Assembly: GCA_964202905.1 (NCBI GenBank)
Contig: CAXNJO010000001.1
Location: 768,001-832,000, forward strand
DNA length: 64,000 nucleotides
Origin: Polyangiales bacterium
Lineage (GTDB): Bacteria > Myxococcota_A > Polyangia > Polyangiales > JADJQN01
Direction of reading: 5' to 3'
This document shows positions 19,572-20,819 of this stretch, in pieces. Each line of letters opens with the position of its first letter. Positions within the stretch are counted from its first letter, which is position 1. Below the pieces are notes generated by a model. That model made no database searches and was not told where the DNA came from. It was given only the letters and a program-made list of their open reading frames with translations. A program made the position numbers and the translations under genes.

Positions 19572-19575
<4 letters not shown>

Positions 19576-20819
19576 GCGGACGGCGGCGCGGCGGCCGGGC
19601 GGCGGGCGATCGGCGTGCGGCGACGCGCGGTGTGCGCGCGTGGCCCGCGCGCTTCGCCGTCGCGCGCTTCGCCGTCGCGCGCTTCGCCGTCGCGCTCTGC
19701 ACCGTCGCTCTCGGCACCGTCGCGCTCGCTGCGTGCGAGGGCAGCGCGCGCGCACCGTCGCCGCCCGGGGATGCGCGTCCCGCGTCGCCCGTCGTTCCGG
19801 CGAATCCGTCGCGTCCCGCGTCGCCCGTCGTTCCGGCGAATCCGTCGCGTCCCGCGTCGCCCGTGCCCTTGGCAGAGCCCACTTCGCCTGCGGAGGCGGC
19901 GTCGGGCCCGCCGCGGGGCGCGCTCCCCGAGGCGACGGCGGTCGGGGGCTTCTTCGGGCTCGAGGGCGGGGACGATGCGTGGATGGCGCGCATCGGCCGC
20001 GCGCAAGCCGCGCGCTTCCGGCCGATCGGCACCTCGAGCCTCGTGTTCAAGGTGTTCTTCACGGGCGGGCTCGAGGCCGCGTTTCGGCCGCGTACGCACG
20101 GGCAGTCGCGCGGCTGGCTGAACGAGGTCGCGGCGTACCGGATCGCGCGCGCGCTCGGCATGGATCAGGTCCCGCCCGCGGTGTCGCGCACGTTCACGCG
20201 CCGCGAGCTCCGGGGGCACCTCGACGCGGACTACGGCGGCGACTGGACCGCGCTCGACGCGGATCTCCTCGGCCGCGGCGACGCCGTCTGGGGCGCGCTC
20301 GTGTATTGGGTGCCCGGGCTGCGCGACCTCGAGCTCGACAGGCCGAGCGGCCTCGCGCGCGCCCGGCCCTGGCTCGCGCAGGACGGCGCGCCCGCGATCG
20401 GGGACGAGGTGTCGCTCGCCGCCGATCTCGCGACGATGCAGGGCTTCGACTACCTGCTCGCGAATGTCGATCGCTGGAGCGGCGGCAACGTTCGCGCCGA
20501 CGCGAGCGGCCGCCGTGTCGTCATCCGCGACCACAACCTCGCGCTGATCTCGCCGCTGCCGCGCGCGCAGCACGAGCGCGTGCTCGGCCGCGCGCGTGGC
20601 GTCGAGCGCTTCTCACGCCGCTTCGTGATGCGGCTGCGCGCGCTCGACGAGGCGGGGCTCCGCGCGGCGTTCGCGGCGGACCCCGCGGCGCAGGCCGGCT
20701 TCGCGCTGCTCGACGAGGCGCAACTGCGCGGCGTGCTCGACCGCCGCGCGGCGCTGCTCTCGCGCGTCGGCGCGCTGATCGCGGTGCACGGCGAGGACGC
20801 GGTGCTCGCCTTCCCGTGA
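19572..20819 (+). CDS. Lipoprotein with Fam20C/Four-jointed-like atypical kinase domain
   Basis: Lipobox VALAAC; Pro-rich linker; AAFRP, [49 protein letters not shown]. Start at 19572 or 19632. Confidence 0.7.
19647..19691 (+). repeat. 15-bp tandem repeat x3 (ARFAV)
   Basis: gcgcgcttcgccgtc repeated three times within the predicted signal region. Confidence 0.85.
19775..19864 (+). repeat. 36-bp tandem repeat x2.5 (RPASPVVPANPS)
   Basis: gcgtcccgcgtcgcccgtcgttccggcgaatccgtc twice plus a partial third copy. Confidence 0.85.

Follow-up and report, generated by a model that had tools for sequence, protein, structure and literature searches.

A gene for a 415-residue protein lies on the forward strand of the window, by which I mean the whole stretch of 64,000 nucleotides that was analysed (Table 1). 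Its GTG start codon at 19572 overlaps with the TGA stop codon of the acyl-CoA dehydrogenase gene upstream. This start is favoured because close homologues share similar Arg-rich N-termini, while a second GTG at 19632 is a possible alternative. The AlphaFold2 model has a mean pLDDT of 85, with values over 90 in the domain beyond roughly residue 130 and of 55-64 in the tether, and a helix covers residues 29-53 of the signal peptide. The first-pass annotation, made from the sequence, had described a repeat-expanded Pro-rich tether. The tether was confirmed, with a 36-bp repeat, and a 15-bp repeat was additionally found in the signal peptide.

Table 1. Positions of the features (window coordinates unless C1 or L033 is named)
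Feature	Position	Strand	Basis or remark
Whole gene, putative exported Fam20/Four-jointed-like kinase, 415 aa	19572..20819	+	ORF, family-profile and fold searches
Predicted signal peptide: Arg-rich n-region, hydrophobic h-region, lipobox VALAAC	19572..19736	+	Sequence; own hydropathy/lipobox rule; Cys55 codon at 19734-19736
15-bp tandem repeat, 4-5 copies, lengthening the h-region of the signal peptide	19646..19728	+	Repeat analysis
Disordered tether rich in Pro/Ala/Ser, ~68-70 aa	19737..19940	+	pLDDT 55-64 over residues 51-120
Perfect 36-bp repeat, 2.5 copies, within the tether	19774-19864	+	Repeat analysis
Kinase domain, residues 124-415	19941..20816	+	pLDDT >90; VIA-align range on hydra Fam20
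Arg172, beta3 position	20085..20087	+	Column of Fam20C Lys285; Arg in Four-jointed
Glu185, alphaC ion-pair glutamate	20124..20126	+	Equals Fam20C Glu311
Catalytic loop: Asp300 (Fam20C Asp458), Arg301, aromatic Trp302, Asn306	20469..20489	+	Alignments
Asp320, metal-binding Asp	20529..20531	+	Equals Fam20C Asp478
Histidine-kinase-like gene, 225 aa, directly downstream	20921-21598	+	Weak HisKA and HATPase_c; without a sensor domain
YbjN/CesT-type chaperone gene, after the histidine-kinase-like gene	21698-22114		
Hanks-type Ser/Thr kinase	9223-10953	-	C-terminus is a long coiled coil
Small putative lipoprotein, Cys-rich	13149-13661	+	Weak matches to disulfide-rich modules
Second copy, Lys-bearing lipoprotein paralogue	C1 ~427,290-428,800 (L033 8288-9799)	+	Lipobox
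NAGPA-type phosphodiester glycosidase gene, head to head with the paralogue	L033 7053-8675	-	

Fold, family and catalytic residues

With the single sequence, no Pfam family was matched at E 0.1 and no solved kinase was matched in the PDB. Thus, the Fam20 relationship is invisible to single-sequence searches. A homologue search yielded 90 proteins from 8000 scored candidates, and 82 of 91 sequences entered the alignment after exclusion of the self match, six fragments, and two transporter fusions. Among the 82 aligned homologues, 49 match Pfam Fam20C and 52 match HipA_2 at E <=0.1. When the profile of these 82 sequences was compared with the PDB, six Fam20 entries came out on top (E 1.4e-19 to 6.6e-11), followed by PI4K2A (E 0.048). 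A domain-only profile of 25 diverse members scored human Fam20C at 85.5 bits (E 3.2e-23), hydra Fam20 at 53.8 bits, and PI4K2 at 22.6 bits. Foldseek, run with the predicted model as the first-pass annotation had proposed, ranked Fam20 chains first (E 4e-11). VIA-align of the model against 48,161 chains gave Z scores of 23.6, 23.3, and 22.9 for Fam20 (rmsd 3.4-3.6, 272-280 residues aligned); the top match was hydra Fam20 (Z 23.6, rmsd 3.6, 272 aligned), and beyond Fam20 came PI4K2A (Z 17.2), CtkA (13.8), and CotH (11.4). The idea of a Fam20-like domain was thus borne out, the best profile and model-fold matches being Fam20 kinases, and all five motif matches to Fam20C that the first-pass annotation had given are present in the HMMER alignments to PDB 5yh3. 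CotH, which had been grouped alongside Fam20, turned out to be much more distant. Profile, fold, catalytic residues, and an export-type N-terminus together place the protein in the Fam20/Four-jointed branch of the protein-kinase-like fold.

The residues were surveyed in 352 bacterial rows, from which identical rows had been removed while near-copies were retained. Glu or Asp is present at position 185 in all 352 rows, Asp300 in 344, Asn306 in 347, and Asp320 in 346, and position 302 is aromatic (W, F or Y) in 332. The catalytic residues of Fam20C are Glu311, Asp458, and Asp478 (PMC4421793, cited here, like the other papers below, for the part of its text that was available). Asp300 and Asp320 match the latter two, so that the catalytic Asp residues are kept, as had been claimed. 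Degenerate members, in which Asp residues are changed, make up eight of the 352 rows. On the other hand, several Fam20 hallmarks are missing. In 329 of the 352 rows, beta3 and the alphaC Glu lie 13 residues apart, versus 26 in Fam20C, and thus the loop with Glu306 and the dimer motif is absent. It is this Fam20-specific beta3-alpha3 loop that carries Glu306, or Asp152 in hydra (PMC4421793, PMC5865150), and the loss of Glu306 alone turns Fam20A into a pseudokinase (PMC4421793). Most rows carry R, S, A or T five positions ahead of the alphaC Glu, with D occurring in 16 of 351, and the Fam20C dimer motif (D/N-F/H-F-Y-F-S/T-D) falls into a gap of the domain-profile alignment. Fam20C Lys271, described as critical (PMC5413348), aligns with Val158. 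Fam20 kinases have four conserved disulfides and a Cys-rich insert (PMC5865150); the insert is absent here, domain residues 124-415 contain no Cys, and 273 of the 352 rows have one Cys at most. Nor does the protein give a match at the curated cut-off of Pfam PF06702. The earlier likening to Fam20C specifically therefore holds for the Fam20-like fold but not for the Glu306 loop, Lys271, the disulfides, and the dimer motif, and several loop features are shared with Four-jointed instead. Judged by its residues, the protein would function in the manner of Fam20-branch kinases; it belongs to a minimal bacterial branch, apart from Fam20A, B and C.

The arginine at the beta3 position

The reported Lys-to-Arg substitution is real: Arg172 stands in the column of Fam20C Lys285 in the HMMER alignment to PDB 5yh3. 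In a published alignment, all 7 Four-jointed/FJX1 rows have Arg in the same column, whereas all 18 Fam20 rows have Lys (PMC3416761 Fig. S1), and Four-jointed is an active Golgi kinase that phosphorylates cadherin domains (PMC3416761, PMC7948968). Scanning metagenomes for a motif gave 18 loci. Sixteen are Four-jointed genes, and the other two are a HipA-like gene and a member of the family; all 15 distinct Four-jointed rows fetched in this way have the beta3 Arg. The metagenome contigs L133-L149 carry intact single-frame animal Four-jointed genes and are a useful sequence source. By hhalign, Arg172 is set on the Four-jointed Arg (97.3%, E 1.8e-11, 260 columns).

Is the Arg common in the bacterial family? 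The survey of homologues at this position, which the first-pass annotation had suggested, was run on the 352 rows and gave Lys in 295, Arg in 53, and other residues in 4. E/D185, D300, N306, and D320 are all kept in 53 of 53 Arg rows versus 287 of 295 Lys rows; no loss of a catalytic Asp, a metal Asp/Asn or the ion-pair Glu was found in this protein or in those 53 rows. Arg319 accompanies the Arg in 51 of the 53. A FastTree phylogeny was made of 228 rows under 62% identity with the beta3 column omitted and with neither Fam20 rows nor an outgroup. It has 16 Lys/Arg changes, and 28 of its 29 bacterial Arg rows are mixed with 79 other rows inside one 107-row clade. On this tree, the branch of Four-jointed is long and pairs with another row that is itself long. 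Four-jointed also has an invariant beta2 Arg that is absent from this protein and may support its beta3 Arg. As a compensating residue for Arg172, the beta2 Lys at position 160 was considered and rejected; it does not align with Fam20C Lys271 and is not among the columns covarying with Arg.

Arg172 had been taken as a hint of a pseudokinase, and this point has to be corrected. Because the active Four-jointed has Arg there and the Arg relatives lose no other catalytic residue, Arg172 is no mark of a pseudokinase, and I read the beta3 Arg as a probably tolerated variant. A pseudokinase would bind a nucleotide or a partner without transfer, and might serve as a sensor or an activator of the Lys-bearing paralogue, as Fam20A does for Fam20C. 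Such a role would suit the Arg at beta3, the lack of equivalents of Lys271 and Glu306, the exported Lys-bearing paralogue in the same genome, and the scarcity of extracytoplasmic ATP. It is nevertheless unlikely, given that the four other catalytic residues are intact in every Arg row, that Arg and Lys interchange inside one clade, that the real degenerate members of the family (8 of 352 rows) alter Asp instead, and that the Fam20 dimer loop is absent. Given the natural Lys/Arg toggle, the beta3 residue by itself is a poor ground for calling a pseudokinase. Separately, membrane-anchored long forms with both catalytic Asp residues changed (to Glu and His) were found in family f16 (L113, L117, L119, L120). 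These are likely to be true pseudokinases, and in at least three cases an intact long paralogue is present elsewhere in the genome.

Another type of transfer by the kinase fold, namely phosphorylation of lipids or small molecules as by PI4K2 or nucleotidyl transfer of the type known from some kinase-like enzymes, is quite improbable. Fam20 is followed by PI4K2 among the fold matches (Z 17.2), and family-specific residues lie beside the catalytic sites (aromatic 302 in 332 of 352 rows, Arg319 in 51 of 53 Arg rows), but the profile gives 85.5 bits for Fam20C against 22.6 for PI4K2, and all catalytic residues are in canonical order and spacing.

Export, distribution, and the source of ATP

Lipoprotein-type export was supported by the lipobox VALAAC with Cys55 under my own hydropathy/lipobox rule, and lipidation and an envelope location are predicted on this basis. 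By the same rule, an export-type N-terminus is present in 146 of 201 homologues (66 by a lipobox, 80 by a hydrophobic segment), versus 714 of the 2401 ORFs from this genome that served as controls. Counted were homologues in which 35 or more residues precede the domain, 32 others being too short. The rule is crude, and many of the 55 homologues that fail it have visibly truncated starts. The family has three anchor types: a lipobox, a cleavable-type signal, and a single membrane helix. In another lineage of the phylum, 21 long kinase ORFs were examined in 20 regions, and in 14 of them two CxxC pairs at the N-terminus and then a single membrane helix precede the kinase. This predicted layout is the topology of Golgi kinases. 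A cytoplasmic kinase, whose N-terminus would be no working export signal, is very improbable. The n-region is unusually long, the h-region is made of a DNA repeat, and the export call comes from my own rule rather than a trained predictor, but 146 of 201 homologues have a lipobox or a hydrophobic N-terminus, and the three anchor types and the lipobox of the paralogue also argue against it.

The family is present in at least 92 of 301 genomes of the phylum and in 30 of 31 related genomes, mostly in two copies, and 543 representatives (50% identity) score E 1e-30 or better. Among the best 79 of 149 genome-collection loci, the titles are myxobacterial or unclassified (delta)proteobacterial, and the myxobacterial origin that had been proposed is supported. 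ESM Atlas clusters are bacterial, with 10-22% labelled Fam20C. Plasmids gave no family match, and viral contigs gave only one partial match of 23 residues and none in a Fam20 motif scan. A search for longer relatives found two proteins, both bacterial, and none of the 104 matches of a region search was eukaryotic by name or in the four proteins examined. Within the class, 10 of 61 genomes pass the Pfam Fam20C cut-off, and none of 14 control genomes gives a match; one of these controls passes the SCO1664 cut-off.

The paralogue passes Pfam Fam20C (PF06702) with 28.6 bits versus a cut-off of 26.8 and is more Fam20-like around alphaC than the window's protein. Glycosidases of the NAGPA type occur in 21 of 81 family loci. 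The gene-neighbourhood survey, run on these 81 loci, revealed no neighbour common to the whole family, the commonest being in 26; therefore, the context names no substrate. An operon clue was rejected, since the upstream acyl-CoA dehydrogenase is in 6 of 81 loci and ccmC in 13, in close kin only. Elsewhere, a 1371-residue frame (L127 3202-7314, + strand, G231:C222) combines a divergent family kinase with a CotH domain (25.3 bits, above the cut-off) and FG-GAP repeats; it has a lipobox-like signal, and a second family kinase follows directly (6597-8819, + strand).

Many myxobacteria and their kin are predators. The protein might be a predation effector, a surface- or vesicle-borne kinase that acts on prey envelopes or lysate using prey ATP. 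This would resolve the ATP problem, the tether is long, and the named loci are from myxobacteria and kin. However, one to two stable copies are kept in 30 of 31 relatives, genomes below 3 Mb included, housekeeping genes surround the gene without a recurrent immunity-like neighbour, and plasmids are unmatched while viral contigs have the one 23-residue partial match. I consider this role unlikely, slightly more so than that of a pseudokinase.

The periplasm is commonly regarded as a compartment without ATP. ATP/ADP translocase-like (PF03219) genes are present in this genome. As an ATP source for the family, the translocase was rejected because of poor co-occurrence: the kinase is in 26 of 26 and the translocase in 4 of 26 f16 genomes, while in f28 the figures are 0 of 6 and 6 of 6. 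In six genomes (L158-L163; G240, G059, G200, G271, G047, G160), 3-14 kb with unrelated genes separate the second-paralogue kinase from a PF03219 gene. Such proximity is seen in several f3 genomes and one f59 genome, not in this genome, and the f3 neighbours were also rejected as an ATP source since they share no operon with the kinase. Two MFS transporter-kinase fusions (P0090, P0091) are identical at 456 of 662 aligned residues, one having Arg and the other a Lys-free variant at beta3. These fusions could bear on the supply of ATP or of the substrate.

Proposed function and comparison with known systems

The best reading, which I consider fairly probable from the sequence evidence, is an active, lipid-anchored, exported envelope kinase. 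The first-pass annotation had left open an envelope kinase or a pseudokinase; its Fam20-like fold and lipoprotein-type export stand, while the pseudokinase hint from Arg does not. The protein would be exported, lipidated on Cys55, and held in the envelope, at the periplasmic face or the surface, via the flexible tether. The domain would act as a metal-dependent kinase of the Fam20/Four-jointed branch. Arg172 and Glu185 may position the ATP phosphates, like the Arg in Four-jointed. Asp320 and Asn306 may bind the metals, Asn306 probably taking this role where Fam20 uses the loop Glu306. Asp300 would be the base that activates a hydroxyl of an envelope substrate within reach of the tether. I infer extracytoplasmic phosphorylation, and the enzyme may have a conserved housekeeping role in its order.

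If the enzyme is active, a Ser/Thr of an envelope or surface protein comes close to an even chance of being the substrate, favoured because the site would be open and Four-jointed-like and the Fam20B sugar pocket is absent. A glycan hydroxyl is a strong candidate of somewhat lower probability, favoured because of the aromatic residue two positions after the catalytic Asp (the place of the xylose-binding His301 in hydra) and the NAGPA neighbour in the paralogue subfamily. Against activity may be counted the joint loss of three residues on which Fam20C depends, with Lys285 changed to Arg, Lys271 changed to Val158, and Glu306 left with no acidic counterpart, as well as the absence here of the beta2 Arg that possibly supports the Four-jointed site.

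FAM20 has been named a eukaryote- or Metazoa-specific cluster (PMC9758233), and Fam20 kinases have been traced and found conserved within animals (PMC7948968). No paper describing the family was found in the literature searched, to which the available parts of PMC9346353 and PMC12189002 add nothing; subscription reviews lay outside its scope. The family may be noted somewhere, since Pfam labels some members already and subscription papers were outside the search. What is new here, as I see it, is the reading of the beta3 Arg through Four-jointed. A wider proposal is that Myxococcota run extracytoplasmic ATP-dependent phosphorylation and that animal Golgi kinases have their bacterial sister group or their source in this family. 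Both Fam20, with its Lys, Glu306 loop and disulfides, and Four-jointed, with its Arg and short loop, would then descend from a minimal enzyme that kept the Asn and tolerated either Lys or Arg. As a whole this is doubtful, though it might be right. A large exported bacterial family is in any case the nearest fold and profile match of the Fam20 kinases. It offers a small Cys-free model enzyme for the branch, including the Four-jointed Arg-type active site, and an outgroup for tracing how the secretory-pathway kinases of animals arose, and it allows a test of ATP phosphorylation of envelope proteins or glycans in Gram-negative bacteria and of the origin of that ATP.

Fam20C and Fam20A are a Golgi casein kinase, with a preference for S-x-E substrates, and its pseudokinase (PDB 5yh3, 5yh0, 4kqb, 5wrr; Pfam PF06702). 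Fam20C is the best profile match (85.5 bits; model fold Z 23.3) and shares Glu311, Asp458, Asp478, an equal spacing from the Gly loop to beta3, and a secretory N-terminus. In contrast, the protein has Arg for Lys285, no Lys271, 13 rather than 26 residues from beta3 to alphaC, no Cys-rich insert, an Asn kept after the catalytic loop, and a predicted lipid anchor, and the structural alignments with Fam20C/Fam20A have 14-19% identity. Hydra Fam20, a Fam20B-type xylose kinase (PDB 5xom/5xoo), has the top VIA-align Z (23.6), tied with the Fam20C entries, and resembles the protein in the catalytic Asp and in a ring residue two positions further (His301 in hydra, Trp302 here). Since nothing here corresponds to its Tyr148-Tyr151/Asp152 loop, its Tyr214-bearing Cys-rich insert, or Lys321, the Gal-Xyl pocket of Fam20B is not kept, as judged by sequence alignments and the available part of PMC5865150 rather than by a residue-level structural overlay.

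The SCO1664 family (TIGR03843), HipA_2/CtkA, and PI4K type II belong to the same PI3K/PI4K-like branch. These families are not known to be lipoproteins. TIGR03843 is matched weakly by 19 of 25 family domains (best 2.4e-9) and by none of the 11 Four-jointed domains. The window's protein reaches 16.5 bits versus a cut-off of 172.4, which is passed in 0 of 151 genomes of the phylum. The spore-coat kinase CotH is likewise bacterial, acts outside the cytoplasm proper, and has a kinase-like fold (Z 11.4), but is far more distant and was not found in this genome (94% complete).

Four-jointed/FJX1, for which no solved structure was found in a PDB search, shares with the protein the Arg at beta3, a short beta3-alphaC loop (11 residues in Four-jointed, 13 here), the lack of a Cys-rich insert, a near-identical run before the catalytic Asp, and the Asn after the catalytic loop. 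Four-jointed differs in a long insert in the catalytic loop, the invariant beta2 Arg, and a Cys-Gly-Arg signature in the N-lobe, and is an animal type II membrane protein. The domain profile scored the 16 Four-jointed ORFs at 23.9-49.2 bits, below the 85.5 bits of Fam20C at the same search size, and the HipA-like gene chosen by the same motif at 27.8. Conversely, a profile of 11 Four-jointed domains scored Fam20 entries at 20.6 bits at most (same search size), although this profile is narrow and its genes were chosen by a motif shared with the bacterial family. The features in common with Four-jointed, namely the short loop, the absence of the Cys insert, and the Asn, may be ancestral.
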